From contig JAZSLS010000035.1 in NCBI GenBank assembly GCA_045535465.1, positions 1-49,068 on the forward strand: a stretch of DNA of 49,068 nucleotides, in the 5' to 3' direction. Positions 1,271 to 48,232 of this stretch are shown here, one piece after another (positions within the stretch are counted from its first letter, which is position 1; each line of letters begins with the position of its first letter). Made by a program: the position numbers and the translations under genes. This DNA is from Eubacteriales bacterium (GTDB taxonomy: Bacteria; Bacillota; Clostridia; Oscillospirales; CAG-382). The notes below the pieces were generated by a model. That model was not told where the DNA came from, ran no database searches, and saw only the letters and a program-made list of their open reading frames with translations.

Positions 1271-2569
1271 CTATTTGGAAGGTTCAAAATTATCAAATTT
1301 CCCCATTTCTTCTACCTTCAACTTGTCTACTATTTTAATATAGGGTTTCATAGCCTTGTAGTCACTATGCCCCGTCCACTTCATTACGACCTCAGCAGGA
1401 ACCCCAAGGCGCAGGGCATTAACAACGAAGGTACGACGGGCGCAGTGGGTAGTAATAACGGCGTACTTCGGTAAAACTTCTTCGTACCGCTGGCTTCCCT
1501 TGAAATATACGATTCTTTGCGGGGTGTCTAAGCCGGCTATTTCCGCCATTACTTTAAGTTGTTCGTTCATTTTGGCGTTACTAATAACCGGCAGGGCCTT
1601 ATCGTTTGGCAGTTCTATATGGCTATACCTTTTGAGGATTGCCCGGCTATACTTGTTAAGTTCAATAATAAGCCCGTCTACGGTTTTTTGCGTTACCACC
1701 TTTATATAGTTTTCCCGAATATCAGACCGGCGGAGCTTAGCAACGTCCGAATAGCGAAGACCGGTAAAGCAGCAGAAGCAAAAGACATCGCGTACAGCCG
1801 AAAGCGCGGTACGCTTGGCCGGAAATTCAAAGTTAAACAGGCTAATAAGTTCTTCCCATTCTAAGTATATTATTTCCTTAGCGTTCCCGTCCACGCCTTT
1901 AAGCCTTGGCTTAAAGTTTTCGTAATCGGTAGAAGGGTTATACCCTTTATTCCACGCCCAGCGCAGGAACCAGCGAAAGAAGGAAAGATACTTAGATATA
2001 GTGGTATTACGTAGGCCTTCTTCCTGCAAGCTTATAACGAAACCTTGTAAAGCTTCTGTATTCAACCCTTCAAAACTTAGGGCCTTGCTATACTTTTGTA
2101 GATGTTCGCGCAGGCTATTAAACTTCGTATAGGTAGCTTTGCTCCAAGCGTTCTGCCTACCCATTGTTTCCATAAATTCAGAATAGGCCCTGTAAAAGGA
2201 AAGGCCGGATTCTTCCGGCTGGGGTTCGGGCTTACGTTTCCCGGTAGCTTCTTCGTAGGCCGCCTTCAATTCTTCGGGAGTTGGGGCGCGGTGTTCCAAA
2301 AGTTCAAAGCGGGTAAAAATTTCGTTTATTCGTTCTTCCGTTTTCAGTATTTCCCTGTTTATTTCGCCGGCGGATTGCCCGAAGCGGTTGCGGGTGTTTA
2401 CCGTTACCCTTTCTTCGGCGGCCTTCCACTTCGCCGGCTCTATACTATACCCTAAGCGGAGTTCTACGCGGTTCCCACCATACGAAACCCTTACACGAAT
2501 AGGCAGGGTTTCGCAAAGAACCCCGTTTACTTTCTTGGGGAATAGCGAAAACTTTATAGCTTTTTTCAT
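1271..2569 (-). CDS. int: Tyrosine recombinase / phage integrase
   Basis: Catalytic signature TGLRYSD (R), TQKT (K), THCARRTF (HxxR), TGHS (H), KPY (Y); Bacteroidetes-type N-terminal arm-binding region. Likely start ATG 2569, overlapping the upstream stop as ATGA; the ORF track extends it to 2605. Confidence 0.95.
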   Translation of the reverse strand: MKKAIKFSLFPKKVNGVLCETLPIRVRVSYGGNRVELRLGYSIEPAKWKAAEERVTVNTRNRFGQSAGEINREILKTEERINEIFTRFELLEHRAPTPEELKAAYEEATGKRKPEPQPEESGLSFYRAYSEFMETMGRQNAWSKATYTKFNSLREHLQKYSKALSFEGLNTEALQGFVISLQEEGLRNTTISKYLSFFRWFLRWAWNKGYNPSTDYENFKPRLKGVDGNAKEIIYLEWEELISLFNFEFPAKRTALSAVRDVFCFCCFTGLRYSDVAKLRRSDIRENYIKVVTQKTVDGLIIELNKYSRAILKRYSHIELPNDKALPVISNAKMNEQLKVMAEIAGLDTPQRIVYFKGSQRYEEVLPKYAVITTHCARRTFVVNALRLGVPAEVVMKWTGHSDYKAMKPYIKIVDKLKVEEMGKFDNFEPSK

Positions 2570-2874
2570 TTCGTAAACATTTTGCCGCGACCTGTAAGCA
2601 ACCAATTAGCGGAAACGGAATACCGCATAGCAAGATAATACAGGGCTTCTATATGGATTGACTTGTAGCGCGAAGTATTAACAGGGCTTGGAGTAACGCC
2701 ATAAGTAAAACGAGCTTCGCGGTACCTTGGAGAATTAAGGCCCGATTCCTTGCAGAAGCTATCCAGCGACGCAAGGCGACCCAGCGCAACAAGCGTATCT
2801 ATTGCGACAAAGAACCGGCGGTTTACGCCGTCTTCTATTGGTGTTACTACCTTAGGCTTCTTCGGCGCGCGCAT
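2566..2874 (-). CDS. Putative HTH DNA-binding protein
   Basis: 102 aa ending YSVSANWLLTGRGKMF, a tail typical of XRE/CI-like HTH domains; stop overlaps the integrase start. Confidence 0.6.
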   Translation of the reverse strand: MRAPKKPKVVTPIEDGVNRRFFVAIDTLVALGRLASLDSFCKESGLNSPRYREARFTYGVTPSPVNTSRYKSIHIEALYYLAMRYSVSANWLLTGRGKMFTK

Positions 2875-5442: not shown

Positions 5443-7479
5443 ATGAACAAAGTAGAACTATTAAGATTGACGCTTAAAAACTTCAAAGGTTTGAAGGAAT
5501 TAGCGGTAGACTTCGGAAACGTCACGACCATTTCCGGAGAAAACGGAACCGGAAAAACTACGGTATTCGACGCTTTTACTTGGTGCCTGTTCGGTAAGGA
5601 CAGCGCAGGCAGAACAGACAGCGGACGCGGAAGCTTTACGATTAAAACCGTAGACGCGACAGGCAGGCCGATAGAGAAGCTGGAACACACCGTTACGGCG
5701 GTTCTTTCCCTTAACGGTAGCGAAGTGGAACTTACCCGTTCCCTCGTTGAAGATTGGGTAAAGCCGCGCGGAAAGGCGGAAGTAGAGCTGAAAGGCAATA
5801 CTACACACTACTATGTAAACGGCGTAGAGGTAAAGGCAGGGCAATACCAAGCCAAAGTAACGGAGCTTATAGACGAACAGCTATTTAAGCTTATTACCAG
5901 CCCGGCGTACTTCCCTTCTTTGGATTGGCAGGCCCAGCGAAATATACTTATGACGATAGCCGGCGGTGTAACCTTCGAGGAAGTGGCAGCGGGCCGCGAA
6001 GACTTCATAGCCATCGTAGCGAAGCTTTCCGGAAAGGATATGGCCGCCTACAAAGCGGAAATAGCATACCGCAAGGGCGTGGTTAAGAAGGAACAGGACA
6101 AATGCCCCGTAGAGATTAACGCTATAACTTCCGTAACGCCACAGGCTCCGGACTATGCAGCCTTAGAAACGGAAAAGGCGACGCTTTCCGCTAAGTTGGA
6201 AGACGTAGAAAAGCAGATTATAGACATCGCCGAAACCACCCGCAAGAACTACCTGCAGGCGCAGGAAAGACAGCGCAAAATAAACGAGCTGAAAACCCAG
6301 CAGAACGAAGTAGTATTCGCCGCAAGGCAGAAGAAGCAAAGTCAAGGCTACGAAGCCAACGCACACCGTAACGAGCTTATAGTAAAACTTTCAGCCAAGC
6401 AGCGCGAATCGGATAACTACGACACAATAGAAGCCCGCGAGAAGGCCGACCTTGAACGTAGGATAAAAGAGAATAACGAGAAGATAGCCGGACTGCAGCA
6501 GCAGAGAACCGCCAAGCTTACCGAATGGGAGAATAAGAACGCGGAAGAATACCGCGCAAGCAGCGAAGGCCTTATTTGCCCGATTTATAGAACGCTTTGT
6601 AGCGACGCTTCGGTGTTGAAGACTGACGCGGAAGCCAAGACTAAGGCTAAGGCAGCCTTTGAACAGGCGAAGGAAGCAGAACTGACCCGCATTACCAGCG
6701 AAGGCCAGGCCATTAACGCCCAAATAAAGGACGCGGAGAAGTACGGCGCAGAGCTTACCCAGCAGCTGACCCAGCACAACGACACGGCTAAGCAGAAGAA
6801 ACAGGAATACGCCAACGAGATAGCGAAGCTTAGCGCAGAACTTGAAAGAACGCCGGAGGTTATTATCAGCACCGACGTAAACCCTGCAGACCTTCCGGAG
6901 TGGCAGGCATTAGAAGCCCAAATAACGGCTATTCCAGCACCGACGGAAGATGGCACAGCCGCGAATACTTCCGAGCTTATAGCCAAGAAAAACGACCTTA
7001 ATACGCAGATTAACTCCATAAACGCCAAGCTTAACCTTCGCGTAGTCATTGAGAATAACGAAAAGAAGGTAGCAGAGATTAAGGCAAGGGAAAGGGAATT
7101 AGCCCAGCAGCTGGCCGACTTGGAGAAGGAAGAATTTACCGCCGACGCACTTAACAAGGCGCGAATGGACGAAGTGGAACGCCGCGTAAACGGACTTTTC
7201 CAAAACGTACGCTTCCGTATGTATGAACGCCAGCTTAACGGTGGCGAAGTTCCTACTTGCGTAGCCTCGGTAAACGGCGTAAAGTATTCAGACCTTAATA
7301 CGGCAGGAAAGATAAACGCGGGGCTTGACATTATTAACACCCTTGGCCTATACCACGGCATAAGCGCGCCGGTATTCATTGACAACTCGGAAAGCGTAAA
7401 CAACCTATTCCCTATTACTTCTCAGCTTATAAAGCTTAGGGTAAGCACCGACAAAGAACTCAGTATTAACCAACTTTAA
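5443..7479 (+). CDS. SMC/Rad50-like coiled-coil ATPase
   Basis: LKNFKG, Walker A GENGTGKTT, long coiled coil, C-terminal signature/Walker B region LNTAG...PVFIDNSESV. Confidence 0.85.
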   Translation: MNKVELLRLTLKNFKGLKELAVDFGNVTTISGENGTGKTTVFDAFTWCLFGKDSAGRTDSGRGSFTIKTVDATGRPIEKLEHTVTAVLSLNGSEVELTRSLVEDWVKPRGKAEVELKGNTTHYYVNGVEVKAGQYQAKVTELIDEQLFKLITSPAYFPSLDWQAQRNILMTIAGGVTFEEVAAGREDFIAIVAKLSGKDMAAYKAEIAYRKGVVKKEQDKCPVEINAITSVTPQAPDYAALETEKATLSAKLEDVEKQIIDIAETTRKNYLQAQERQRKINELKTQQNEVVFAARQKKQSQGYEANAHRNELIVKLSAKQRESDNYDTIEAREKADLERRIKENNEKIAGLQQQRTAKLTEWENKNAEEYRASSEGLICPIYRTLCSDASVLKTDAEAKTKAKAAFEQAKEAELTRITSEGQAINAQIKDAEKYGAELTQQLTQHNDTAKQKKQEYANEIAKLSAELERTPEVIISTDVNPADLPEWQALEAQITAIPAPTEDGTAANTSELIAKKNDLNTQINSINAKLNLRVVIENNEKKVAEIKARERELAQQLADLEKEEFTADALNKARMDEVERRVNGLFQNVRFRMYERQLNGGEVPTCVASVNGVKYSDLNTAGKINAGLDIINTLGLYHGISAPVFIDNSESVNNLFPITSQLIKLRVSTDKELSINQL

Positions 7480-7490
7480 TAATTCAAATT

Positions 7491-7781
7491 ATGACACAGG
7501 ACAACAAAAAGCGCGGCTTCGCCGAAGAAGTAGCAGCCGTATCGCAGGAGCTTATGCAGCAAACCGAGGACAACAAAAAGAACGCCTTTATTCTTATCGG
7601 TTCTGAAAGATTGGGGGGGGTAGATAAAGAAGAAGGGGACGCTAAGGCGGTTATAGCAATAGGCGGAAACCACGGGCAGCTGGTAAACGTTTTAGCCGAA
7701 TTTATAAACAACCCGCAGACCGCAGACCTTGCCGCCGAAGCCTACAAGGTTGCGATGCTTAAAAAGATATTTAGGAAGTAA
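7491..7781 (+). CDS. Phage hypothetical protein
   Basis: 96-aa ORF in the operon. Confidence 0.65.
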   Translation: MTQDNKKRGFAEEVAAVSQELMQQTEDNKKNAFILIGSERLGGVDKEEGDAKAVIAIGGNHGQLVNVLAEFINNPQTADLAAEAYKVAMLKKIFRK

Positions 7782-7798
7782 CATTAAACAACATCACT

Positions 7799-8599
7799 AT
7801 GGCAGAAGAAACAAGTTTGTCAATAATTGACAACGCAAAGCAAAAGTTCGAGCTTGCCTGCAAAGACGCGGCCAGCTTGCAGATAGTAAACAACTTCGGC
7901 GCAGCGTTTACAGCAGTAAACGTTATAGCCCTTCTACGCGAAGCACTTAGCGACGAAGTTATGAACAAAGTCTTTATGCCCCTTATGAACACTAAGGTCG
8001 GCTTCTTGACGGACAGGACAGGAAGACCGGACAAAAGGGGTAACGTAAAACCGCCTTATGGCGTAGCAATAGTAAGGGACGCTATTATAGACGCGGTAAG
8101 TATTGGCCTTCTTCCAACCGGCAACCAATTCAATATCATAGCGGAACGTATGTACCCGACTAAGGAAGGCTATACCGCCCTTCTTCGCAAGCTTGGCGTT
8201 AAATACTTTATAGACGTTTCCCACGACAGGAGCCAAAACCCCGGTTTCGCTGAAATTCCGTGTAAGGTAAGCTACGAATATAACGGCGAAAGAAACAGCT
8301 TTACCGTAGTAGCTACCGTTAAAAAGGACGATTACAGCAGCCACGACCAAATGCGCGGCAAGGCGGAACGCAGGGCTAAGAAAGCCCTATACGAATATAT
8401 TACCGGTTGTGATTTCGGGGACGCAGACGACCAAAGCGGCGCACCTATGTACGCGGAAGTCGAAGTAGAAGACGCGGTAGCCGTAGAGGTTAAGGACAAA
8501 GCCAACAAGGGAGAAACTATGAGCTTCGGAGAGGGCGACTCGGTACCGACAGCTGAACCAGCAGGAACAGGAAAAGCACCAAGAAGGCCAGATTTTTAA
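7799..8599 (+). CDS. Putative single-strand annealing / recombination protein
   Basis: Positioned between an SMC-like ATPase and an MBL nuclease; GLLPTGNQFNII..MYPTKEGY..L and MRGKAERRAKK resemble RecT-like elements; acidic tail. Confidence 0.45.
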   Translation: MAEETSLSIIDNAKQKFELACKDAASLQIVNNFGAAFTAVNVIALLREALSDEVMNKVFMPLMNTKVGFLTDRTGRPDKRGNVKPPYGVAIVRDAIIDAVSIGLLPTGNQFNIIAERMYPTKEGYTALLRKLGVKYFIDVSHDRSQNPGFAEIPCKVSYEYNGERNSFTVVATVKKDDYSSHDQMRGKAERRAKKALYEYITGCDFGDADDQSGAPMYAEVEVEDAVAVEVKDKANKGETMSFGEGDSVPTAEPAGTGKAPRRPDF

Positions 8600-8602
8600 G
8601 CT

Positions 8603-9343
8603 ATGGAACTGAAAGTATTAGGCAGTAGCAGCTGCGGGAATTGCTACGTTCTTGAAAACGACACCGAAGCCCTCATACTTGAAGCCGGCGTTAAGTTCGC
8701 CGAAGTTAAAAGGGCCTTAGACTACAATATAACCAAGGTAGTAGGCTGTCTAATTACGCACGAACACGGCGACCATAGCGCGTATATTAACGACGTTCTT
8801 AACGCTACTATTCCCGTATTCGCTTCGGCTGGTACCATAGAGAACACCCAAATAGAAGCAAGGCATAAGCCGCAGGTTTGCACAGCCGGAAAACTTCTAA
8901 GGCTCGGCGGTTTCCGAATTATTCCCTTCGGGACTAAGCACGACTCCGCCGAACCCTTGGGGTTCTTCATTAACCACGAAGAAACGGGAAACATTCTATT
9001 CGCTACCGACACTTACTATCTGCCTTGCACCTTTGAAGGCCTTAGTAATATTTTGGTAGAATGTAATTACCGCTTAGACATATTGGACGCGAATATAGCA
9101 GCCGGCAAAATTCCGGCTGTTGTAAGGGACAGAACAATAAAGTCGCATTTCAGCTATGCCCATTGTTTAGAAGCGTTACAGGCTAACGACTTGCGGAAGG
9201 TAAATAATATAGTTCTTATACACCTTTCGGCAGGGAACAGCAACGCGGAAGAATTTAGGGCAGGAATTAAGGCAGAAACCGGAAAGAACGTCCATATCGC
9301 CGAAGCGGGCTTAGTTATTAACTTCAACAAAACACCATTTTAG
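8603..9343 (+). CDS. MBL-fold metallo-hydrolase (probable exonuclease)
   Basis: LGSSSCGN, THEHGDH, HDSAEP, ATDT, ECNY and HLS motifs. Confidence 0.9.
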   Translation: MELKVLGSSSCGNCYVLENDTEALILEAGVKFAEVKRALDYNITKVVGCLITHEHGDHSAYINDVLNATIPVFASAGTIENTQIEARHKPQVCTAGKLLRLGGFRIIPFGTKHDSAEPLGFFINHEETGNILFATDTYYLPCTFEGLSNILVECNYRLDILDANIAAGKIPAVVRDRTIKSHFSYAHCLEALQANDLRKVNNIVLIHLSAGNSNAEEFRAGIKAETGKNVHIAEAGLVINFNKTPF

Positions 9344-9344
9344 T

Positions 9345-9755
9345 ATGCTAAAAGGTTTCGACGTACATACTGCCCCACTAACGGATATAGAACGGTATAG
9401 GCTGGTTCCAGCGTTAGTAAACATTCTTAAAACCGCCAAAGGCAAAAGAAGGGCCGTTACTAATAACGATATAGCGACCATATTAAAGGACGATGGTAGA
9501 CGGCCAAGTAGCGCAAGGATAAGGAAGCTTATAAACTACATCAGAAACAACGACCTTATAATAGGCCTAATAGCTACTTCCAATGGCTACTATATAGCCA
9601 GCTGCGAAGAAGAACTTATAGAGTACGAAGACAGCCTAAGAGGACGCGAAGAAGCCATAAAAGCTGTAAGGTTGAGTATAGCGCGCCAGCGGCGCAAGCT
9701 TTACGAAGGGCTAAGACAAGAACAAACATTATTCAATAACACCAATAACGATTAA
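9345..9755 (+). CDS. Phage hypothetical protein (possible winged-HTH)
   Basis: 136 aa; AVTNNDIA...ARIRKLINYIR...IATSNGYY pattern. Confidence 0.6.
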   Translation: MLKGFDVHTAPLTDIERYRLVPALVNILKTAKGKRRAVTNNDIATILKDDGRRPSSARIRKLINYIRNNDLIIGLIATSNGYYIASCEEELIEYEDSLRGREEAIKAVRLSIARQRRKLYEGLRQEQTLFNNTNND

Positions 9756-9759
9756 GAAA

Positions 9760-10290
9760 ATGAAAAAGGAATTTTTTATGAATTACGCGGAGGGACAGCA
9801 GACCCCTACGTACAAGTTCGAGAACGAAGAAAAGGCGAAGGCGGAAGCCGAAAGATTGGCAGAAAAGCTGGGGGTTCCCGTAACCACCCTTAAAGCCGTA
9901 GATGTTACCCAGCCTAAGGACATTACCCAGCGTGTTAAGACCTACGCAGACGCTTGCGCTGTTCTTGGAGTAGAGCCGGTAAACGACGAAGAATTAGCGA
10001 AGCTTGGCTTTACCAAGGACGAAATAGCCTACCGCAAGTTAAAGACCATAGCCGAAGCCCTTAACGAAGGCTGGGTAGCGGACTTTTCAGACAGCAGTAC
10101 GTACAAGTATTGGCCGTGGTTCATTTATTCCGGCGCGTCTGCCGGCCTTTCGTTCGCGTATGCGTATAACACGGCTTCGTATACGCATGCGGCTATCGGC
10201 TCTCGGCTTTGCTATAAAACACGTAAACTCGCCGCGTTCGCGGGTTCGCAGTTCATAGATTTGTATAACGACTTCCTTCTAAGAAAATAG
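9760..10290 (+). CDS. Small early protein, second (remote) DGR target
   Basis: Contains VR2 in frame, ending GSRLC as in the tail target; no signal peptide or transmembrane segment visible. Confidence 0.88.
   Translation: MKKEFFMNYAEGQQTPTYKFENEEKAKAEAERLAEKLGVPVTTLKAVDVTQPKDITQRVKTYADACAVLGVEPVNDEELAKLGFTKDEIAYRKLKTIAEALNEGWVADFSDSSTYKYWPWFIYSGASAGLSFAYAYNTASYTHAAIGSRLCYKTRKLAAFAGSQFIDLYNDFLLRK
10126..10212 (+). repeat. DGR variable region VR2
   Basis: 87-bp ungapped match to TR 45070-45156; 16 mismatches by manual count, all at TR adenines. Confidence 0.93.
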
Positions 10291-10294
10291 AACT

Positions 10295-11122
10295 ATGGCG
10301 GCACAGGTACAAACAAGAAAAAACGAAGTACGCTTTACTACTTCCTGCTTGGAAGAGATGTACGGTAAATTTTTGGCGAAAAACGTAGTAAGGACTTGGA
10401 AGGAAGACTTTATAGACCAAAGTACGGGCGAAGTTATAAGTATTGACCGAAACGAAATTCTTTTTGAAAAGGGCGTACGAATTGACGACGACGTGCTAAG
10501 CCGTATAAACTTTTGCCTTCAATGCCAAGACATAACAGCGGTAGAGGTCAGCAACCAACGCCGATTAGCGCAGCCTATTAAGCGTACGGGCTTATGGCCG
10601 TACAAGGTAAACGCAGCAATAAGCGGCAAGAATTACGCCTTTATTTTGCAGGCGCAGGACGTAACAAAGGCAATAGCGGTAGCTACGGACTATATAGAGC
10701 TTAACTATACTTCCGGCTTCGCTATTACCGGCGCAGAGGCCTTGCAGTCGTTTATAATTTTGAACGACAGGTACAAGCCCGCGCCGCAGGAGCTGGAAGG
10801 AGAACAGGAAGACAACAACGGCGAAGAACAGCGCGACGATACCCGCTACTATAAAATTGAAGCGTTAGTTTCCATTGAGGACAACGCCAGCGAAAACGAG
10901 AACGACAACGGGGAATATAGCTACGATTTCCTTGTCAAGACCAAGGACGTAGATACGGCAAAGGTCGTAATTACAGCTTGGATAAACAACAAGTTCAAGG
11001 AACAGGCAGAAGAAGGTAAGTACGCCCGCCTTTCCATTATTTCGGCTTCTCCGTTTTCTTGCAATTCGATTATAGAAAAGGACTTCTGCTTAGCGTACAA
11101 GGAAGAAGAATATACGGAATAA
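10295..11122 (+). CDS. Phage protein with N-terminal RpoB-insert-like segment and C-terminal DUF4494-like region
   Basis: GKFLAKNVVRTWKEDFIDQSTGEVISIDRNEILFEKG resembles the Bacteroidetes RpoB segment recalled as GRKLAARVLKTWxEDFVDEDTGEVVSIERNE. Confidence 0.6.
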   Translation: MAAQVQTRKNEVRFTTSCLEEMYGKFLAKNVVRTWKEDFIDQSTGEVISIDRNEILFEKGVRIDDDVLSRINFCLQCQDITAVEVSNQRRLAQPIKRTGLWPYKVNAAISGKNYAFILQAQDVTKAIAVATDYIELNYTSGFAITGAEALQSFIILNDRYKPAPQELEGEQEDNNGEEQRDDTRYYKIEALVSIEDNASENENDNGEYSYDFLVKTKDVDTAKVVITAWINNKFKEQAEEGKYARLSIISASPFSCNSIIEKDFCLAYKEEEYTE

Positions 11123-11131
11123 CAACAACCC

Positions 11132-11153
11132 GGCTCCGCCTTCGGGCGGGGCC
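11132..11153 (+). other. GC-rich hairpin with TTCG loop (no U-tract; stabiliser or weak terminator)
   Basis: ggctccgcc-ttcg-ggcggggcc. Confidence 0.55.
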
Positions 11154-11170
11154 ATTAAAAAGCAAAGGAT

Positions 11171-11893
11171 ATGGCGAAAAGGTTTATAGATACCGACTTA
11201 TTTAAGAAACGCTTTGTAAGAAACCTTCCGGGGCCTTATAAATTGCTTTGGGTTTACCTTTTTTGCGAATGCAGTAACGCTGGTATTTGGGAAGTAGACT
11301 TAGAGATAGCCGGGCTATATTGCGGGCAGTCCTTCAAAATGGAAGACTTACGCAAAACCTTGGGCGATAGGCTTTACTTCTTCGACGGCGATAGTAAGGC
11401 CTTCATTCCGGACTTTATAGAATTTCAGTACGGAAAAGGGCTTAACAGGCAGAACCCCGCGCACCGTTCCGTAATAGACCGCTTGGAGTATTACAACCTT
11501 ATGGGGGTTCTTGAAGGCGGCTTTACCGCGCCGGAAATCCCTGCTGCAGCAGTAGCAGAACCGGAGCCAGCAGAACAGGAAGTACGGCCAGCAAGAAAGA
11601 AAACGAGAACGGCGAAAAAGTTTATACCCCCAACCCTTGAAGAAGTGGCGGCTTATTGCGAGGAACGCGGGAACGACGTAAACCCGCAAAGCTGGTTAGA
11701 TTTTTATACTTCCAACGGCTGGAAGGTAGGAAAAAACCCTATGAAAGATTGGAAGGCCGCGGTTAGAACTTGGGAACGAAACGGAATAACTAATAGTTTG
11801 AGGAATGGCAGACAACAGCAAGGAAACAACGCGGGTGGATATGACCCGCTTCCGGGAGCTTCTAAAAAGGGCGGCTTTTCCGGAACGCTTTAA
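11171..11893 (+). CDS. Phage replication initiator / replisome organiser
   Basis: N-terminal MAKRFIDTDLFKK...AGIWEVD and C-terminal FIPPTLEEV...FYTSNGWKVGKNPMKDWKAAVRTWE; directly upstream of a DnaC-like ATPase. Confidence 0.8.
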   Translation: MAKRFIDTDLFKKRFVRNLPGPYKLLWVYLFCECSNAGIWEVDLEIAGLYCGQSFKMEDLRKTLGDRLYFFDGDSKAFIPDFIEFQYGKGLNRQNPAHRSVIDRLEYYNLMGVLEGGFTAPEIPAAAVAEPEPAEQEVRPARKKTRTAKKFIPPTLEEVAAYCEERGNDVNPQSWLDFYTSNGWKVGKNPMKDWKAAVRTWERNGITNSLRNGRQQQGNNAGGYDPLPGASKKGGFSGTL

Positions 11894-12473
11894 GATAGAC
11901 CGGTATATAGAAGACGTACCGGCTATGCTAAGGGAAAGCTACATATTCGAAGTAGAACGCAGGTACAAACACTTCGTAGACGACGCGGAAACGGCCAAGC
12001 ATATAGAACAGGCAGCCAAGTGGCTGGTAGGAAACCACAAGTTCGGGCTACTTCTATACGGCAAGGTTGGCAACGGCAAAACAACGCTTTCCCGCGCTAT
12101 CGGCAGGCTTATAGGGCTTCTATACGAAAGCTACTCATACCACGAAAGAAAGAATGTAAGACACGTTACAGCCTTGGAGCTTGCCAGCATAGCGAAGGAA
12201 AATCCAAACACCTTCAACGACATCAAGACCCGCGAATTATTGGTAATTGACGACGTAGGTGTAGAACCTTCCGTAATTAAGGTTTGGGGCAACGAAATAA
12301 GCCCGTTTGTGGAAGTAATATACCACCGTTATGACCGGCAGCTATTCACGATTATAACAAGCAATTTAGACGACGAAGAACTATTTAGGCGTTACGGCCC
12401 GCGTGTAGCGGACAGATTCGCGGAAATGTTCGATAGGATAGCATTTGAAAATAATAGTTATAGAACAAAGTAA
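11805..12473 (+). CDS. DnaC/IstB-like ATPase (helicase loader)
   Basis: Walker A GKVGNGKTT, Walker B LLVIDDVG, TIITSN and RVADR motifs. Confidence 0.88.
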   Translation: MADNSKETTRVDMTRFRELLKRAAFPERFKIDRYIEDVPAMLRESYIFEVERRYKHFVDDAETAKHIEQAAKWLVGNHKFGLLLYGKVGNGKTTLSRAIGRLIGLLYESYSYHERKNVRHVTALELASIAKENPNTFNDIKTRELLVIDDVGVEPSVIKVWGNEISPFVEVIYHRYDRQLFTIITSNLDDEELFRRYGPRVADRFAEMFDRIAFENNSYRTK

Positions 12474-12476
12474 CTT

Positions 12477-13073
12477 ATGGGCAAAGTGTATATTTCGGGC
12501 CAAATAAGCGGCCTACCGATAGAAGAAGTAAAAGAGAAATTCAGCAGCGTAGAAGCGCAGCTTATAGCGCAGGGGTACGAAGTAGTAAACCCACTTAAAA
12601 ACGGATTGCCTTGGAACGCGCCGTGGGAACTACACATAGCTATGGATATTGTACTACTTATGGGGTGCGATACTATTTACCTTCTTACGGGTTGGGACAA
12701 TTCACGCGGGGCAACGCTTGAAAAGAACTTTGCCGAATTGACAAAGAAGAAGATAATTTACGAAGCTGCCCCAGCATACTCGGAGATAAAGCAGGCTATT
12801 ACGGAAGTTATGGGCGTTTCCTTCGCAGATATTACCGGAAGCTGTAAAGAATTACAACTCGTTTACGCGCGTAAGATTTTCACGCAGCTAACAAGGGAAG
12901 CGGGACTTACCGTACAAGCAATAGGCAAGCTTATCCAGCGGAGCCACGCAACCGTAATTTATTATTTAAGGACATACGAAAACGACTACAACTATACGCC
13001 GGAATTTCGGAGTATAGCCAACAAGGTCAAGGACTACCTAAAAAAGCTTAATACGCCGAATAGCGTCTTATAG
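12477..13073 (+). CDS. DUF4406-like domain fused to DnaA C-terminal-like HTH
   Basis: KVYISGQISG...VVNP...CDTIYLL.GW.NSRGATLE, then ARKIF...IGKLIQRSHATVIY. Confidence 0.75.
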   Translation: MGKVYISGQISGLPIEEVKEKFSSVEAQLIAQGYEVVNPLKNGLPWNAPWELHIAMDIVLLMGCDTIYLLTGWDNSRGATLEKNFAELTKKKIIYEAAPAYSEIKQAITEVMGVSFADITGSCKELQLVYARKIFTQLTREAGLTVQAIGKLIQRSHATVIYYLRTYENDYNYTPEFRSIANKVKDYLKKLNTPNSVL

Positions 13074-13086
13074 TAATACAAAAGAT

Positions 13087-13449
13087 ATGAAAAAGAAGAT
13101 AGCGGCGGCTTTACGCAAGATAGCCAGCTGGCTAAGCCCTGTTCCTAATTCTTTTATACAGGGAATAGAAATAGACCATATACGACTGCTTCCGGAAAAA
13201 TACGACATAGAAAAGCTGGGGGTAGCATACGAATACAACGAAATAGAGTTACATCAACGCTCTCTATTGATTTCCTACGGGCATAAAACGAAAGAATACT
13301 TTATAGAACGCGACCAGCGCAGAATAGAAGAAAGCATATTTAAGGCTATCCGAGAAAAAGGGCTTATTCAGCTATACAGGAGATATGACGAAGATACCAG
13401 AACAGAGGTAATAAGCGGGGAATTATTAGTAGGAGTAAAGAAAGTTTAG
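13087..13449 (+). CDS. Phage hypothetical protein
   Basis: 120-aa ORF in the operon. Confidence 0.6.
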   Translation: MKKKIAAALRKIASWLSPVPNSFIQGIEIDHIRLLPEKYDIEKLGVAYEYNEIELHQRSLLISYGHKTKEYFIERDQRRIEESIFKAIREKGLIQLYRRYDEDTRTEVISGELLVGVKKV

Positions 13450-13451
13450 CT

Positions 13452-14390
13452 ATGACTATACAGGAATTAGAAGCGCGCCAAAAATGGACGCTAAACCAAA
13501 AAATAGACCACGCCGTAGGAACGGTAGAAGCCTTCATAGCGAAGACCGGGAAAACCCCTTACGTTTCCTTTTCGGGCGGGAAAGACTCTACCGTATTGCT
13601 TGACCTTGTAAGGCGTTTTGTAGACAAGGATATAAAGGCGGTTTTCTGCAATACCGGGAACGAATACCCCGAAATAGTACGCTTTGTAAGGAGTACGGAG
13701 AACGTAACTATAATTCGTCCCGAAATAACATTTAAGCAGGTTATTAGCCGGTACGGCTTCCCGCTAATATCAAAGGAACAGGCGCACGGAATACGCCAAG
13801 CGAAGACTACTAAAAGCGAAAAGCTACTTTCTATCCGACTTCACGGAAGCGACCCGAAGAAAGGTTATAGAAGCGGTAAGATAGCAGACCGCTGGCAGTT
13901 CCTTATAAAAGAGCGTTTCGACGTTTCAGAGCAATGCTGCGAATACCTAAAAAAACGACCATTCGCAAGGTATAGTAGGGAAACCGGCGAAGTTCCGATA
14001 TTAGGAGTAATGGCCGGCGAAAGCGATTTAAGGAAGCAGCAATATATACGCCGGGGGGGGTGTAATTCCTTCCAAAATTCACATATAGCGAGCTACCCTA
14101 TAAGCATTTGGACTGATGCGGATATTTGGGAATACTTACGGAAGTACAACGTTCCATATTGCGAACTATACGACAAAGGCCACACGCGAACCGGCTGTAT
14201 GTTTTGCGGCTTCGGGGCGCACTTGGAGAAAGTATCGCGCTTTGAATTATTGTACGACCTACACCCAAGGGCCTATAACATATTTATGGACTACGAAAAT
14301 AACGGGTGTACATACCGCGAAGCTTTGCGGAAAATTGGGGTTCTGCTTCCCGACGAGTGCAGACAATTAAATTTATTCGATAACCAATAA
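13452..14390 (+). CDS. PAPS-reductase-family (PP-loop) protein
   Basis: SFSGGKDS PP-loop, CC..LKK and RTGCMFC motifs. Confidence 0.88.
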   Translation: MTIQELEARQKWTLNQKIDHAVGTVEAFIAKTGKTPYVSFSGGKDSTVLLDLVRRFVDKDIKAVFCNTGNEYPEIVRFVRSTENVTIIRPEITFKQVISRYGFPLISKEQAHGIRQAKTTKSEKLLSIRLHGSDPKKGYRSGKIADRWQFLIKERFDVSEQCCEYLKKRPFARYSRETGEVPILGVMAGESDLRKQQYIRRGGCNSFQNSHIASYPISIWTDADIWEYLRKYNVPYCELYDKGHTRTGCMFCGFGAHLEKVSRFELLYDLHPRAYNIFMDYENNGCTYREALRKIGVLLPDECRQLNLFDNQ

Positions 14391-14402
14391 AAATAACAAG
14401 TT

Positions 14403-14804
14403 ATGTTACAAATTGAGATTATAGGCAACTTAGGACAGGATGCCGAAATTAAGGAGTTTAACGGGCAACGGTTTATATCGTTCAGCGTAGCTCATACCGA
14501 AAGCTATACCGACGCGCACGGAGAAAGGCAGAAGCGTACCGTTTGGGTTAGCTGCCTTAAATACGGAGAAAGCGGCGTTATTAACTATCTCAAGAAGGGA
14601 ACTTCGGTATTTGTTCGCGGCGACCTTTCCGTAAAGATGTTCAGCGCAAACGGGACTTTACAGGCCGGTATAAATTGTAGGGTTATGGACTTGCAACTAC
14701 TTGGCAGAAACAAGCAGGAACAGGGACAAACAAGCGCAGCCCCAGCACCGCCTGCCCCATCATACCAGCAGCCAACCGAAGAAGGCGACGACTTACCATT
14801 TTAG
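14403..14804 (+). CDS. ssb: Single-stranded DNA-binding protein
   Basis: IIGNLGQDAE...YLKKGTSVFVRG; acidic C-terminal DDLPF. Confidence 0.93.
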   Translation: MLQIEIIGNLGQDAEIKEFNGQRFISFSVAHTESYTDAHGERQKRTVWVSCLKYGESGVINYLKKGTSVFVRGDLSVKMFSANGTLQAGINCRVMDLQLLGRNKQEQGQTSAAPAPPAPSYQQPTEEGDDLPF

Positions 14805-14832
14805 CAGAATAACCAATTAAATAATAAGACTT

Positions 14833-15732
14833 ATGGAATATAAAATTTTTAGAAGTTCAGACACTAATGTCGCAAAATTCGTATTTGAGAAAAAAGAAAC
14901 CGACACGGTTAAAGGGATAGCAGTAGAAGCCGTATTATACCGCTATAACTCCTTTAAGGAACGTACGGTAATTTGTTGTTCCACCCAATGCGGCTGCCCG
15001 GTAGGTTGTGCTTTTTGTGGTACGGGTAAGTTCTTCGTACGGAACTTAACCAGCGACGAAATAGTAGAACAGGTAGAAGTCGCGTTACATACAATAGACT
15101 GCCCTACGGACGAAATAGCAAAGTTTCAAATTATGTTTATGAGTATGGGCGAACCATTCCTTAACTATACAAATTTGGAAGGTGCTATTATAACACTTGC
15201 GGAGAAATACCCTAACGCGCAGTTATTAGTAAGCACTTCGGCCCCTAAGAGCATTACCGCAAACTTCGGAAGATTTATTAACCTCAGTAAAAAATACAAA
15301 AAGGTAGGTATTCAATTTTCAGTACACGAAAGTAGCGACGGTAGAAGGGCAAAACTTATACCTACCCCTACTTCCTTGCTTTCGGAAATTGGAATATTGG
15401 GGGAAGAATGGGCAGCCCAAACAGGAAGAAGGCCTTTCTTTAACTATTGTGTTCACGAAGGGAATAACAAGCAGGAAGATATAGAATGTTTGCTTAAAAG
15501 CTTTAACCCGTACGTATGGGAATGTACGTTATCGGTTATTTGCGAGAAGGACAACACCGTAAAGAATGCCATAGAAGAAAAGTTAGACATTATTAAGGAC
15601 TTTTCAAAGAGAATGGCTGCGGCTGGTTTTTCGCTTCGAGTATTCAACCCAGCGGGGCAAGACGACATCGGCGGCGGTTGCGGCCAACTTTGGTACTTCC
15701 AAGATTGGCTAAACAAGCAACGAAAGAAATAA
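14833..15732 (+). CDS. RlmN/Cfr-like (class A) radical SAM methyltransferase-like protein
   Basis: ICCSTQCGCPVGCAFC (CxxxCxxC plus upstream Cys), MSMGEP, SVH and C-terminal DDIGGGCGQL. Confidence 0.82.
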   Translation: MEYKIFRSSDTNVAKFVFEKKETDTVKGIAVEAVLYRYNSFKERTVICCSTQCGCPVGCAFCGTGKFFVRNLTSDEIVEQVEVALHTIDCPTDEIAKFQIMFMSMGEPFLNYTNLEGAIITLAEKYPNAQLLVSTSAPKSITANFGRFINLSKKYKKVGIQFSVHESSDGRRAKLIPTPTSLLSEIGILGEEWAAQTGRRPFFNYCVHEGNNKQEDIECLLKSFNPYVWECTLSVICEKDNTVKNAIEEKLDIIKDFSKRMAAAGFSLRVFNPAGQDDIGGGCGQLWYFQDWLNKQRKK

Positions 15733-15748
15733 CCTCAAAATAAGAATT

Positions 15749-16273
15749 ATGCACCACTTAGAAAACGAAGAACACAAGTACCAAACACCGCCGGCGATTT
15801 GCGATTATATGGTAAGTCTTATTCCGGCAGGAGCTAAGACCGTTTTAGAGCCTACGCCGGGCGTCGGAAACTTGGTAAGGGCGTTAGAGTCTTCCGGTAA
15901 ATACGAAATTACCGCGCCGGAAGACTACTTCAAGCTTGCAAAAAACACCCGCTACGATTGTATTGTTATGAACCCACCTTTTAGCAGTAAATACGCCTTC
16001 GGAGTTCCCGAAGGGTTGGAAGAAAAAGGTATGAAGTTAGGCTATAAAATTCTTAGAGAGTGTATGGAGCTTAGCGACCACGTAATAGCCCTTATGCCGT
16101 GGTTTACTATAAGCGACAGCGACGTAAGGCTCCGAGAATTGACAGCCTACGGGCTTAGGAGCATTACAGCCCTACCGCGTAAGACTTTTAATTATATACG
16201 AATACAAACTATGGTATTAGAGCTTGAAAAGGGCTATTCGGGCGAAACCACATTTAAGACAATAAAATTATGA
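15749..16273 (+). CDS. Small N6-adenine DNA methyltransferase
   Basis: Motif I VLEPTPGVGN and motif IV NPPF. Confidence 0.85.
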   Translation: MHHLENEEHKYQTPPAICDYMVSLIPAGAKTVLEPTPGVGNLVRALESSGKYEITAPEDYFKLAKNTRYDCIVMNPPFSSKYAFGVPEGLEEKGMKLGYKILRECMELSDHVIALMPWFTISDSDVRLRELTAYGLRSITALPRKTFNYIRIQTMVLELEKGYSGETTFKTIKL

Positions 16274-23902: not shown

Positions 23903-24352
23903 ATGGGGATAATTGCAAACTTCGATATAGACGAACTATTTAAGGGGGTTTACGAAGCGGTAGAAGCTATTACGGACGCAGTTACGCAGTCCATAATAGC
24001 AGCTTGTATGCAGACGGTAGCGAAGGCCCGCACCCTTAGAACCTATACGGATAGAACAACCCTGTTAAGGTCTTCTATTGGGTTTGTTGTTTACGACCAC
24101 GGGCAGAAGGTAGTAGACAACTTTCAAGGGGCGGGCGGAGCTTCCGCAGCCGAAGGAGTAAACAAGGGCAAGCAGGTGGCAGAAGCCGCAGCCAAGGAAC
24201 ACCCCGCCGCTATTGTAGCGGTAGTAGTAGCGGGCGCAGATTACGCTCTATACGTAGAAAGCAAGGGCTACGACGTTGTAACCGGCCCCTGCACCGAACT
24301 AAATAACCTATTAGAACAATACCTTAGGGAAGCGGTAGCTTCTTTTCAGTAA
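23903..24352 (+). CDS. HK97 gp10-like neck/tail-completion protein
   Basis: YTDRT..LRSSI and AGADYALYVE motifs. Confidence 0.65.
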   Translation: MGIIANFDIDELFKGVYEAVEAITDAVTQSIIAACMQTVAKARTLRTYTDRTTLLRSSIGFVVYDHGQKVVDNFQGAGGASAAEGVNKGKQVAEAAAKEHPAAIVAVVVAGADYALYVESKGYDVVTGPCTELNNLLEQYLREAVASFQ

Positions 24353-25926
24353 TGAGTAAGAGGACGGAACTAATACAATACTTAGCCAACATAGAACGGA
24401 AGCTAAGCAGCATATACGGCAGCACCTACCGTGCTGTCCTTGAAGTTGCGGACGTACGCAAGTCAATAGAAGCCGGGGTAAACTTTACTTGGGAAGGGAA
24501 CCCAGCGGCAGAAAAGAAGCTTACCCAGCTTCTTAACGACCTAAGCAGCAAAGCGGCCCTTCTTATAGGCAACGGAGTACAGCAGGGCTATAAACGCGGT
24601 GAGGAACACGGAACGCAGGCGGTAGTAGAACGGCTTGGCAAAGGGAAGGCACAAAAGGAAGCGGTAAGAGAGATATGCCAGCAGGCGACCAAGGAGCGAA
24701 GGGAGCAGGGAATGACCGCCCACGCATACGCAACAGCGGAGCGCGGCGGGCTTACCCTTTCTTCCCGCGTTTGGAACCTAACCGGCAATGCAAAGAAGGA
24801 GCTGGAAATAATAATACAAAACGGCATATTAGAGGGTAAAAGCGCAAACGAGATAGCCAGCAGTATAAAGGGCTACCTTAACAACCCTAACGCCCTGTTC
24901 CGGCGCGTACGCAACAAGAAAACGGGGAACTTTGAACTTAGCGAAGCAGCTAAAAAGTACAACCCCGGCCAAGGCGTATATAGGTCGGCATACAAGAACG
25001 CCCTGCGCTTGGTACGGACGGAAATGACTAACGCATACAGGCGCGCGGAGTGGGAAAGTTACCAAAATAACCCGCTTGTAACGAGTTACGAAATTAGGCT
25101 AAGTTCCAACCATACTACTACAACCACCAGCGGCAAAGTAGTACGCCTTGTTGATATTTGCGACAAGCTGGCCGGCGTTTACCCTAAGACGTTCCGGTGG
25201 GAAGGTTGGCATCCTAATTGCCGTTGCGTTATGGTTCCTATTGTTGTAACACCTAAGGACTTCGGGGAATACTTGAAAGCCCGCAGGAAGTCGCGGCAGT
25301 TGGAGTGGAAGCCGAAGACAAGCCAACAGGTAACGGACATTCCGCCGCAGCTTACCGGGTGGATTGAGCAAAACCGCCGGCGTATGTTAGCCGCACCTAA
25401 GAAGCCTTCGTTTATAGAGGATAACAAGGGCGGTATTCAGCTGGCACAGCAGCAGGAGAAAAAAAAGTTACAATTATTTAGCGGAACGCTCCAGCAGTTC
25501 GCCGCCGAGATATTGAAGACAGGGCGAAGTATAGGCAAGGTTTCGCAGGTCGGCAGGATAGACGACGCTATTAAGGCCAATATGGTAGCGAAGGGGCTAA
25601 CCATTGAAACGGAAACTATTATAGTCCTTGATAAGACTGTAATAAAGTACATAGACCACCCGAAGGCGGCCAAGGGCGCAGTAGTACCGGCAGAAAGGTA
25701 CGGGCTAATAGAACAGGCTATTAAAAACCCTTTGCACATTTACGAAGACCTCAATAGCAAAGAACTTGTTTACGTATATACCCACCCATACGAAGAAGGC
25801 AAGCTTATAAAGGTTGTAGTACAACCAAACTACAAGTATAAGGGAGCTACGGCCAACGTAGCGAAGTCTTGGGGCGTTGTAGAAGAAGGACAAATGAACC
25901 ATTCTTACTACCGTAAAATAAAATAG
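24352..25926 (+). CDS. MuF (gpF/SPP1 gp7-like) minor head protein with C-terminal extension, putative BECR-fold nuclease toxin
   Basis: RLVRTEM..AY, CD.LAG.YPK.F.W.GWHPNCRC MuF motifs, then a linker and a ~150-aa compact alpha/beta domain. Confidence 0.8.
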   Translation: MSKRTELIQYLANIERKLSSIYGSTYRAVLEVADVRKSIEAGVNFTWEGNPAAEKKLTQLLNDLSSKAALLIGNGVQQGYKRGEEHGTQAVVERLGKGKAQKEAVREICQQATKERREQGMTAHAYATAERGGLTLSSRVWNLTGNAKKELEIIIQNGILEGKSANEIASSIKGYLNNPNALFRRVRNKKTGNFELSEAAKKYNPGQGVYRSAYKNALRLVRTEMTNAYRRAEWESYQNNPLVTSYEIRLSSNHTTTTTSGKVVRLVDICDKLAGVYPKTFRWEGWHPNCRCVMVPIVVTPKDFGEYLKARRKSRQLEWKPKTSQQVTDIPPQLTGWIEQNRRRMLAAPKKPSFIEDNKGGIQLAQQQEKKKLQLFSGTLQQFAAEILKTGRSIGKVSQVGRIDDAIKANMVAKGLTIETETIIVLDKTVIKYIDHPKAAKGAVVPAERYGLIEQAIKNPLHIYEDLNSKELVYVYTHPYEEGKLIKVVVQPNYKYKGATANVAKSWGVVEEGQMNHSYYRKIK

Positions 25927-26218: not shown

Positions 26219-26821
26219 CTAATTTTGCCCTTTTTGTAGTTTTGATAGGCGAAGCTTGTAACTTTTGACATCATACGGGACAAAACAATAGAATCCGTTA
26301 GGGCCTAAAACCTTTTCCTCGGCAACGGCGGCGGCGCGTATTGTTTCGGTAAGTTCCGGATATTCCCTTAATGCAGCTTCGGCGCGCTTTTCGTTTTCAG
26401 CAGCAAATACGGATATAGCCTTAGTAATAACCCTTACTTCTTCTTCCGGCTTGCGGTTACGGCGGTAAAGAACCATAAGCCGAGTATATGCGTGGGTGGC
26501 AGGGTACCCAAGGGCTATAACAGCTTCGTATATTGCTACGGCTTCTTCCGTATTGCCTGCCTTTTCCGCTGCTATTCCTTTCCCGTTAAGGTATGCCGTT
26601 CTTTGTAGGTTGTATTCATTCCGGGCGGCGTTCCGGAAGTTTAACCGGGCTTCCTCGGCTTCTTCTTTTGTAAATTCTATATAGTTCCTTCCTTCGCGTT
26701 TATTACGGATATATAAGCTGGAGTATTTAACGGAATTTGGGAACGCGGTAGACATAACCGAAGGGGCAAACATCCACAGGGGAAGGCGTACCTTCTTCCG
26801 GAATAGGTTACTAATTCCCAT
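26219..26821 (-). CDS. Moron gene, TPR-like helical protein
   Basis: NGKGIAAEKAGNTEEAVAIYEAVI...AYTRLMVLYRR...EEEVRVITKAI resembles TPR repeats; opposite strand to the structural genes. Confidence 0.65.
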   Translation of the reverse strand: MGISNLFRKKVRLPLWMFAPSVMSTAFPNSVKYSSLYIRNKREGRNYIEFTKEEAEEARLNFRNAARNEYNLQRTAYLNGKGIAAEKAGNTEEAVAIYEAVIALGYPATHAYTRLMVLYRRNRKPEEEVRVITKAISVFAAENEKRAEAALREYPELTETIRAAAVAEEKVLGPNGFYCFVPYDVKSYKLRLSKLQKGQN

Positions 26822-26825
26822 AGCT

Positions 26826-27230
26826 TTACTTGTTTTTTATAGTTATAAACGAAGGGCGCGCTTCCCACTTGATTAGCGGGCTGGTAAAGACAGGAACAAC
26901 GGTAAGGGTATATTCGCCCGGTTCCCCAGCAGTATAGCGGTAGGCAAAAGGGTAATTATTTGTTTCGCAGAGAAAGGCTCCGTTCAGATAGTAAGCAACC
27001 TCGGAAATATAGGCTTTGTTTTCTTCGTTACAACAAGGATAGAGGTGCAGGTCATACAGGTTCCCGGAAGTAAGAACTTCCAACGCTTCGGGGTCGCCGG
27101 CCCTTGTTTCCGTTTCAGTAAAGAACCCATACAGCGGCTCAGTAATAACGACTTTTTCCGGTTCTTGGCTTGATTGACCGCAGGAGCATAACAGGCAGAC
27201 CCCTAAAAGCCCCAATAAGTAAGACTTCAT
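26826..27230 (-). CDS. Moron lipoprotein (possible Ig-like fold)
   Basis: MKSYLLGLLGVCLLCSC lipoprotein signal from ATG 27230; beta-rich VAYYLNG...YPFAYRY...GEYTLTV. Confidence 0.7.
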   Translation of the reverse strand: MKSYLLGLLGVCLLCSCGQSSQEPEKVVITEPLYGFFTETETRAGDPEALEVLTSGNLYDLHLYPCCNEENKAYISEVAYYLNGAFLCETNNYPFAYRYTAGEPGEYTLTVVPVFTSPLIKWEARPSFITIKNK

Positions 27231-43243: not shown

Positions 43244-43257
43244 AAAGAAGACTAACT

Positions 43258-48225: not shown

Positions 48226-48232
48226 CACGAAA

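Follow-up and report, generated by a model that had tools for sequence, protein, structure and literature searches.

A small protein of the early-type gene module as a probable remote second target of a prophage DGR

Here we describe a prophage in which VR2, located in the gene of a small protein remote from the template, is very probably a genuine target of the single DGR and, as sequence comparisons indicate, is rewritten in natural populations of the phage lineage. One template repeat (TR) serves two targets, VR1 in a tail-module gene and VR2, and the two have been diversified independently. The protein carrying VR2, hereafter called target 2, belongs to the phrog_11581 family, a recurrent DGR substrate, whose members serve in some phages as a remote second target, in others as the neighbour of the TR and the reverse transcriptase (RT), and in one complete phage record as a tandem pair beyond which no other target was found.

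To our knowledge, DGRs are the only natural machines for the targeted hypermutation of proteins. Phage DGRs are usually read as tools for receptor switching. The present locus is a clean natural example of the less understood case, in which the hypervariable product is small and its gene stands among early genes, and many near-identical variants of it are publicly available.

Results

Organization of the prophage

The window, that is, the whole stretch of DNA analysed here, is one entire contig of 49,068 nucleotides, and contains an integrated prophage of about 47 kb, whose ends lie near 1.2 kb (integrase) and 48.3 kb (tRNA-Ser). The integrase gene (1271-2605, minus strand; phrog_1, E 3.7e-33) forms the left end, with regulators alongside. 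At the right end, ARAGORN detects a tRNA-Ser(TGA) (48307-48392, minus strand), which is the probable integration site, and no att direct repeat of at least 12 nt was found between 601-1400 and 48151-48650. An earlier reading of this DNA, made from the sequence only, had placed VR2 about 12 kb from the template on the excised circle, and this distance is right if the prophage has these ends.

The target 2 gene (9760-10290, plus strand) is separated by 4 nt from each of its neighbours. Directly 5′ of it lies a recombination block (5443-9755, plus strand; phrog_77, phrog_392, and phrog_2113), composed of an SbcC-like ATPase (5443-7479), an ORF at 7799-8599, an MBL-fold hydrolase (8603-9343), and the phrog_2113 ORF (9345-9755), which is the last gene before target 2, all on the plus strand. 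On the 3′ side, replication and DNA-modification genes follow on the same strand (10295-16273), beginning with a phrog_35807 ORF and including a DnaC-like loader (11805-12473), a PAPS-reductase-like gene (13452-14390), an SSB gene (14403-14804), and a methyltransferase-like gene (15749-16273), all on the plus strand; a resolvase-like gene is also present in this plus-strand block. After the early-type block, the order is ParB-methyltransferase, TerL, portal, major head protein, tape measure, and tail proteins, and the tail genes are followed by target 1, a 113-aa accessory ORF, the TR, the RT, and then a holin-like gene. The target 2 gene is thus part of the recombination, replication, and DNA-modification (early-type) module, and lies outside the virion module.

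The TerL of the prophage is closest (72%) to that of Porphyromonas phage005. This phage is syntenic with the prophage, yet the RT search of it gave no match, indicating that the DGR and target 2 behave as an accessory set. In Porphyromonas phage005b, the RT search also gave no match, and no member of the phrog_11581 family was present among the tblastn matches. The hydrolase of phage005b at the position of the MBL hydrolase is annotated as ‘anti-Pycsar nuclease, Apyc1-like’. A megablast search with positions 9000-11000 of the window against the deposited phages returned no match.

Does the taxonomy of the bin inform us about the host of the phage? Target 2 and the left-flank DNA were each found in 0 of 40 relatives. 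The flank protein has matches in 3 of the 40, which are only 24-29% identical, and the flanking tRNA-Ser is 72-79% identical to the tRNA-Ser of the relatives, with nothing matching beyond the tRNA. Because these flank matches are weak or absent, we do not rely on the bin taxonomy for the phage host.

The DGR core

The TR spans 45044-45160 on the plus strand, and VR2 uses only 45070-45157 of it. VR1 (44441-44557, plus strand) matches TR 45044-45157 and departs from it at 19 positions, each of them a TR adenine. VR1 resides in the target 1 gene, which encodes a tail-module protein (43258-44574, plus strand; phrog_5302 ‘tail protein’, E 1.6e-133). The longest ORF of target 1 begins at the TTG at 43231, and its homologues (438-443 aa) begin at the position of the ATG at 43258. 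The RT (45266-46276, plus strand) is a single ORF, the longest form of which begins at the TTG at 45188. It matches Pfam RVT_1 (E 2.6e-22) and phrog_1423 (E 3.3e-130), and every score against the NCBIfam RT models was below the cut-off. The translation contains PIGNYLSQ and YADD; the (I/L/V)GxxxSQ and YxDD sequences are the motifs of DGR-type RTs. Between VR1 and the TR, in the usual position of Avd, the 113-aa accessory ORF (44678-45019, plus strand) matches phrog_19665 (E 2.9e-31). Searches of Pfam, NCBIfam, and the PDB sequences gave no match to this ORF, none of the Avd models fits it, and it is not recognisable as Avd. A phrog_19665 ORF also occurs directly after the RT in the phage record G008, described below. 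The TR, the RT, and the IMH-like end are intact in the prophage.

In BPP-1, a GC-rich hairpin or cruciform is located just downstream of the VR. A hairpin of this kind was not detected in our prophage, as 75-nt DNA folds starting in the IMH-like end did not outperform those of shuffled sequences (z +1.0 for VR2 and +1.9 for VR1), and the regions downstream of the VRs contain short palindromes only. A need for the downstream hairpin is not known for many DGRs, and this test therefore carries little weight.

Match between VR2 and the template

VR2 (10126-10212, plus strand) covers codons 123-151 of target 2. In a scripted alignment, it matches TR 45070-45156 without gaps and with 16 differences, all at TR adenines. 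Of the 87 bases in this part of the TR, 26 are A, and the 61 non-A positions are all unchanged in VR2. As (10126-9760) is divisible by 3, VR2 starts on a codon boundary of the ORF 9760-10290, in the same phase as VR1, and the TR reads as AAT/AAC codons in this common frame (VR1 in the ORF 43231-44574). The match, its adenine-restricted differences, and its codon phase had all been noticed in the sequence-only reading, and they are correct to the base.

VR1 and VR2 have 71 of 87 bases in common, and their 16 mutual differences are all at TR-A sites. Five TR-A sites are changed only in VR1 and five only in VR2, while 11 are changed in both (5 of them to the same base) and 5 in neither. The proposal that the two VRs were diversified independently agrees with this distribution. 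The 3′ ends of both VRs read TCGGCTCTCGGCTTTGCT, in contrast to TCGGCTCTCAGCTATGCA in the TR, reproducing the distinction between IMH and IMH*-like ends that had been drawn before. The IMH-like 3′ end of VR2 (10196-10213, plus strand) thereby carries three fixed differences from the IMH*-like end of the TR, which are shared by VR1 (TR 45149 A>G, 45153 A>T, and 45157 A>T), and the same pattern is present in 5 of the 5 related phages examined. On the upstream side, the homology between VR2 and the TR stops abruptly at 45069. VR2 is shorter than VR1, and its end is located 25 codons before the stop codon (10288-10290), also as described earlier.

The two strands of the window were scanned with the A positions masked, in 50-nt sub-windows and with at most 3 non-A mismatches allowed. 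The scan returned the TR, VR1, and VR2 only, and a BLAST search with the TR against the whole 2.09-Mb assembly gave no further copy. These results exclude a chance similarity.

Natural diversification of VR2

How does VR2 vary in nature? In a collection of 5.8 billion proteins, the closest proteins are 100% identical to target 2 outside residues 123-146, and different inside. We aligned 20 near-identical variants, comprising P0001 and 19 listed members of the two nearest 90% clusters, with the 201-aa P0410 left out (one of these clusters has 93 members, 15 of which are listed, and the other has 5, which are all listed). The variants have 16 distinct VR peptides as compared to 6 distinct flanks, and the variable columns are 17 of 29 in the VR and 11 of 141 in the flank. 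The codons that vary are 124-146, while codons 147-151 are nearly fixed and codon 123 (AAT in the TR, TAT in the VR) is invariant in all 20 variants. Across 121 family members, codons whose TR counterpart contains an A average 2.0 bits of entropy (up to 3.35 bits and 15 residue types), as compared to 0.66 for the remaining VR codons and 0.53 for positions beyond the VR.

The same locus was followed in sequencing runs. At least half of the 31-mers sampled from 9300-11300 are present in 18 of the 24 runs listed, which come from 10 studies. The highest share in any listed run is 0.93, and this shortfall from a full share would fit the presence of the flanks with a differing VR. Four runs from four studies were compared as assembled contigs, each of which offers one or few alleles per sample. 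At 80% likeness, copies of VR1 and of the TR, from this phage and from others, map onto VR2 as well, so that the depth bins and the pooled letters are mixed. The records used were the contigs from X4, X5, and X9 that span the full 2-kb stretch, and two 126-nt pieces from X2.

The X4 contig has 16 differences from the window over 2001 nt, of which 14 are in VR2, and all 14 are at TR-A sites. The X9 contig has 18 differences, with 15 in VR2 and 14 of these 15 at TR-A sites; the change from T to G at 10194 is the sole non-A change among the 29 VR2 changes of the two contigs. In both, the 1914 flank bases contain only 2 to 3 differences, as compared to 14 to 15 in the 87 VR bases. The X5 contig has a VR2 identical to that of the window and 2 differences elsewhere, and may be derived from the source sample. 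In X2, the assembly is broken at either side of VR2, which is covered by two alternative pieces of 126 nt that have 11 and 9 differences. A broken assembly with alternative pieces is what co-existing alleles produce. VR2 is thus neither invariant nor adenine-unspecific: it varies across populations and relatives at TR-A sites while the flanks stay fixed, in line with what the sequence-only reading had anticipated.

Structure of target 2

The 176-aa target 2 protein matches phrog_11581 (E 1e-34, 121 bits), and VR2 lies within its conserved phrog_11581 module, which comprises residues 52-176. Searches of Pfam and NCBIfam gave no family for the protein. Target 2 lacks a hydrophobic segment (the maximal Kyte-Doolittle mean over 19 residues is 0.69), and is predicted to be a soluble protein. 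The earlier description of a small cytoplasmic early protein stands with respect to the placement in the early-type module and the lack of a hydrophobic segment; residence in the cytoplasm and binding to host defence or transcription factors would be further, hypothetical properties.

The AF2 model of target 2, based on 49 homologues, has a mean pLDDT of 83. It consists of a beta-beta-alpha-beta unit (residues 5-46), a helical part with a pLDDT above 90 (residues 55-101), short strands inside the VR (residues 131-133 and 142-144; pLDDT 61-65), and two C-terminal helices. In a Foldseek search of this model, in which the VR part has a pLDDT of 61-65, against the PDB, the best E was 1.5, with none at E<=0.001 and no lectin among the best 50 rows. 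The BFVD search gave 5 matches at E<=0.001, all of which are uncharacterised phage proteins; several BFVD local matches of about 50 residues probably cover the helical middle part, judging from the cr113_1 match. Similarly, the family profile gave no match to the PDB sequences, with no lectin at E<=10, and no lectin-type family was present among 25 of the 38 Pfam families listed for 49 family members at E<=1. The lectin detection had no positive control, as the AF2 model of target 1 (36 homologues) has a pLDDT of 43.8 and was not used. In the cluster atlas, target 2 matches unnamed viral clusters only (score 0.93), and among the matches of residues 50-176 listed for the named clusters, there is one at 0.76, without a common Pfam family.

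The profile-profile comparison of the target 1 and target 2 families revealed 29 shared columns, which are the VR itself and nothing else, and the phrog_5302 match on target 2 is limited to residues 123-155. The two proteins are therefore unrelated outside the VR, as had been supposed. The multi-target reading of the locus also survives in its core, as one TR serves two targets; target 1 itself is called a ‘tail protein’ by phrog_5302, and the family call does not support the earlier term ‘extracellular adhesin’.

The phrog_11581 family in other phages

A word-indexed search retrieved 510 family proteins at E<=1e-3, and a full profile search of 1.84 billion cluster representatives retrieved 4870 at E<=1e-3 and 670 at E<=1e-30. 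The members are mostly 120-200 aa in length, and some hold two copies. Among 2215 candidates, no longer fused form was detected at E<=0.001, which is weak evidence. In the locus search, the single-protein query yielded 5 distant loci, and an alignment query was required to obtain more. We examined 19 phage records with a family member: 5 relatives at 67-72% identity, 4 deposited phages, and 10 distant IMG/VR records. Porphyromonas phage005b is not counted among them.

An RT match is present in 17 of the 19 records, and an A-specific TR/VR match, with the TR beside the RT, in 16. The three exceptions are cr109_1 and a 73%-complete record, both without an RT, and a record in which the RT match is weak (30% identity) and a TR match is missing. 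Each of the five close relatives has 16 to 23 mismatches within the 87-nt frame, and the 2 to 5 of these that are non-A are clustered at the 5′ edge. In the IMG/VR set, the family gene directly adjoins the TR and RT in 6 records and is remote in 2.

Three phages illustrate the gene neighbourhoods. In G008 (63 kb, CheckV 100%), two tandem family genes, the products of which match phrog_11581 at 2.2e-34 and 1.9e-30, are followed by the TR, the RT, and the phrog_19665 ORF, with DNA methyltransferases nearby, and the A-masked scan of the whole record revealed no VR beyond the two tandem members. Bacteroides phage Versailles has the order SbcC, recombinase, metal-dependent hydrolase, NinB/Orf, and family member, as in our prophage. 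In BI-TP1, in which the RT is split over three frames, the family member is located among methyltransferases, an HNH endonuclease, and a PAPS reductase.

Discussion

How would a single template serve two distant genes? On the basis of the established biology of DGRs, exemplified by BPP-1, we propose that the RT makes cDNA from the TR RNA and misincorporates at random opposite the adenines. Any VR that bears the matching IMH-like 3′ end, near the TR or far from it, would then be replaced by this cDNA. As VR2 shares only 45070-45157 with the TR, about 29 codons of target 2 would be replaceable, and about 23 of them (124-146) are seen to vary.

Two explanations would remove either the present activity or the retroelement itself from this scheme. 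VR2 may be a relic, once written by the DGR and no longer diversified, in which case the differences among the relatives would be old strain differences. Such a state would be compatible with our use of runs in the form of assembled contigs with one or few alleles per sample, with the invariance of codon 123 in 20 of 20 variants, and with the failure to detect a hairpin downstream of VR2. It conflicts with the finding that 16 distinct VR peptides sit on nearly or fully identical flanks, with the concentration of differences in X4 and X9 (14 to 15 in 87 VR bases against 2 to 3 in 1914 flank bases), and with the two alternative VR2 pieces within run X2, as well as with the intactness of the RT, the TR, and the IMH-like end. 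We consider the relic highly improbable. The similarity could also have arisen by chance, or by an exchange between VR1 and VR2 through ordinary recombination or gene conversion, with no retroelement involved, which the 71 of 87 bases common to both VRs would suit. However, TR adenines account for every site at which VR1 and VR2 differ from each other or from the TR, and for 28 of the 29 differences among populations, and the A-specific pattern recurs in each relative with its own TR. Since gene conversion would not respect the TR adenines, an origin without the retroelement is effectively refuted, and rewriting of VR2 by the DGR is the reading with which we proceed. The non-A change in X9, the non-A mismatches in the close relatives, the missing BPP-1-like hairpin, the accessory ORF that fits no Avd model, and the VR2 of X5, which equals that of the window, count against this reading.

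What, then, is diversified? From the gene context, we favour, with about even confidence, a non-structural hypervariable binding protein that is made early and acts inside the cell against a variable factor of the host or of a competitor. The principal alternative accepts target 2 as a real DGR target, but regards it as a virion-associated or released binding protein, such as an accessory receptor-binding protein, a decoration protein, or a lectin freed by lysis; we rate this as possible but rather unlikely. Tropism switching is the classical role of phage DGRs, signal peptides are also missing from the structural proteins of phages, and the Versailles homologue is annotated as ‘tail protein’. 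In addition, the only DGR targets found in G008 are the two tandem family members, and a DGR with targets of this family only would also fit a receptor-binding or virion role. Against a place in the virion, the gene is embedded among recombination, replication, or DNA-modification genes in four phage types (the window, Versailles, BI-TP1, and G008), and no structural-protein family or fold was found for target 2. The ‘tail protein’ label in Versailles most likely derives from the VR similarity alone, considering that phrog_5302 matches only residues 123-155 and that the two families share 29 columns.

Extending the intracellular binding protein to the whole family leads to a more speculative and, in our opinion, rather unlikely proposal: the phrog_11581 module may constitute a DGR scaffold of its own, which cannot be recognised as a C-type lectin or as an Ig fold. 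It would characterise a very large family of phage proteins that are non-structural and hypervariable and that, in some phages, are the sole reason for the upkeep of the DGR. If this is true, then the DGRs of gut phages would have a second major job besides receptor switching. They would wage, from the replication and DNA-modification module, an antibody-like arms race inside the cell against variable factors of the host or of rival phages.

Comparison with known systems

The following comparisons draw on the available portions of the cited papers. The layout of a DGR with a remote second target is already published for related gut phages (PMC5758913; 10.1101/575076; PMC8008677; PMC12629997). 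In the catalogue of Wu et al. (2018), 45 of 372 DGRs have non-adjacent targets, those associated with phages lie within 50 kb in the same prophage, and the action of a DGR in trans was shown experimentally; being a catalogue, it contains no description of the phrog_11581 family in the text covered (PMC5758913). In four inducible species of gut prophages, a distal second VR is located near counter-defence genes (Nature 2025, PMC12629997).

In the temperate gut phage Shimadzu of Roseburia, described by Cornuault et al. (bioRxiv), the RT adjoins a tail gene that contains VR1, and VR2 is located elsewhere, in orf43, a gene of unknown function. Read analysis revealed that both VRs are actively mutated, and the VR2 alleles are more diverse and less strongly selected (10.1101/575076). 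In that phage of a Firmicute host, the activity is experimental, whereas in our prophage it is deduced from population comparison only. A tblastn search of the phage collection with target 2 returned no Roseburia phage among 13 matches, and no homology to the Shimadzu protein was detected with that query.

A close counterpart is found in Quimbyvirus/LoVEphage, where one TR serves two VRs, the first in a protein adjacent to the tail genes and the second in a small non-structural protein that is encoded away from the structural module, near methyltransferases (Benler et al. 2021, PMC8008677). The variation among near-identical genomes is A-specific, and in Quimbyvirus the second target lies in a defence-like island and the RT is split over three frames (PMC8008677). 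Target 2 is homologous to gp84 of BI-TP1, which is of the LoVEphage type, with 33% identity over 77% of the length (tblastn E 7e-15), and its matches to the LoVEphage records have E values from 1e-13 to 6e-10. The VR of BI-TP1 gp84 matches the TR beside the three-frame RT with 0 non-A mismatches in 60-nt frames, and gp84 presumably corresponds to ‘ORF 80/84’ of Benler et al. In contrast to the 71-kb LoVEphage, our prophage is about 47 kb in size, is of the integrase type, and has a single-ORF RT. VR2 is shorter than in the LoVEphage type because the family insertion before the VR is missing. Moreover, Benler et al. detected a C-type lectin domain in the Quimbyvirus counterpart by HHpred (PMC8008677), whereas none was detected in target 2, in searches that had no positive control.

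Baykov et al. described two-target cassettes, in which one TR serves two unrelated proteins, the tentaclins and DUF6273 proteins, and the VR forms a beta-hairpin (2023, PMC10743442). Our model likewise places the short strands 131-133 and 142-144 inside the VR. These systems differ in that both targets lie within the cassette, the proteins are of other families (N-terminal C-lec plus Ig domains; DUF6273), and the phages are small myoviruses of Firmicutes (PMC10743442).

In the main texts of the literature, to which our search was confined, phrog_11581 is not named in any paper retrieved, nor is the breadth of the family described. The additions made here to the published systems are at the level of the family: it is without a Pfam entry, comprises thousands of cluster representatives, and is repeatedly paired with DGRs across phage types, sometimes as the only target found and consistently beside recombination, replication, or DNA-methylation genes. 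Because of this recurrent pairing and gene placement, the family, rather than one locus, provides a good entry to the partners of non-structural DGR targets.

DGR of phage record G008 and the accessory ORF

In the complete 63-kb phage record G008, the sole detectable targets of the DGR are two tandem phrog_11581 genes, members of the family of target 2, the remote DGR target at 9760-10290 of the window. The G008 DGR region spans 11071-13516 of L139 (G008:C1), with the VRs at 11410 and 11884, the template repeat (TR) at 12060 and the RT at 12232-13245, and is neighboured by an exonuclease/FtsK-like ATPase and DNA methyltransferases. The Avd position of the window's DGR is occupied by a 113-aa accessory ORF of phrog_19665 (44678-45019), which matched none of the Avd, Pfam, NCBIfam or PDB-sequence models. 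A phrog_19665 gene is also present in G008, directly 3′ of the RT. The product of the window's ORF is possibly a DGR accessory protein that has gone unrecognised or has diverged very far.

Two sites in VR2

Two sites stand out in VR2, the variable repeat of target 2 (10126-10212). One population difference, the 10194 T>G change in the metagenome run X9, falls outside the TR adenines, at the third base of a codon that reads AAT in the TR; the TR of that phage might be a different one, or the change might be an ordinary mutation. Codon 123 (10126-10128; AAT in the TR and TAT in VR2) encodes Tyr in all 20 near-identical natural variants, despite the two adenines in the TR codon. There are two readings: the stretch replaced by cDNA has its effective 5′ boundary between codons 123 and 124, or strong selection maintains the Tyr.

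Origin of the contig

To judge from its two ends (1-1200 and 48300-49068), the contig is probably foreign to the Clostridia bin in which it is filed. Neither target 2 nor the left-flank DNA was present in any of the 40 relatives searched, and the flank protein had matches in only three of the 40, at no more than 24-29% identity. The flanking tRNA-Ser(TGA) is only 72-79% identical to the copies in these relatives, beyond which no match to their sequence was found. Isolates and MAGs of Bacteroidales carry relatives of the phage, but so do MAGs labelled Christensenella or Clostridia.

Other genes, and a comparison with Porphyromonas phage005b

Two genes upstream of target 2, the window encodes an MBL-fold hydrolase (phrog_392; 8603-9343). 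Its counterpart by position in Porphyromonas phage005b is annotated as “anti-Pycsar nuclease, Apyc1-like”. Among the matches of a minor-head/morphogenesis-type protein (24352-25926) is also phrog_16625, annotated as “Bxa ADP-ribosyl transferase” (E = 1.2e-58). In the + strand structural block, the head genes are interrupted by a pair of − strand ORFs (26219-27239), at 26219-26821 and 26826-27239; the former, the one of the two that was searched, had no PHROG match. [quoted passage not shown]
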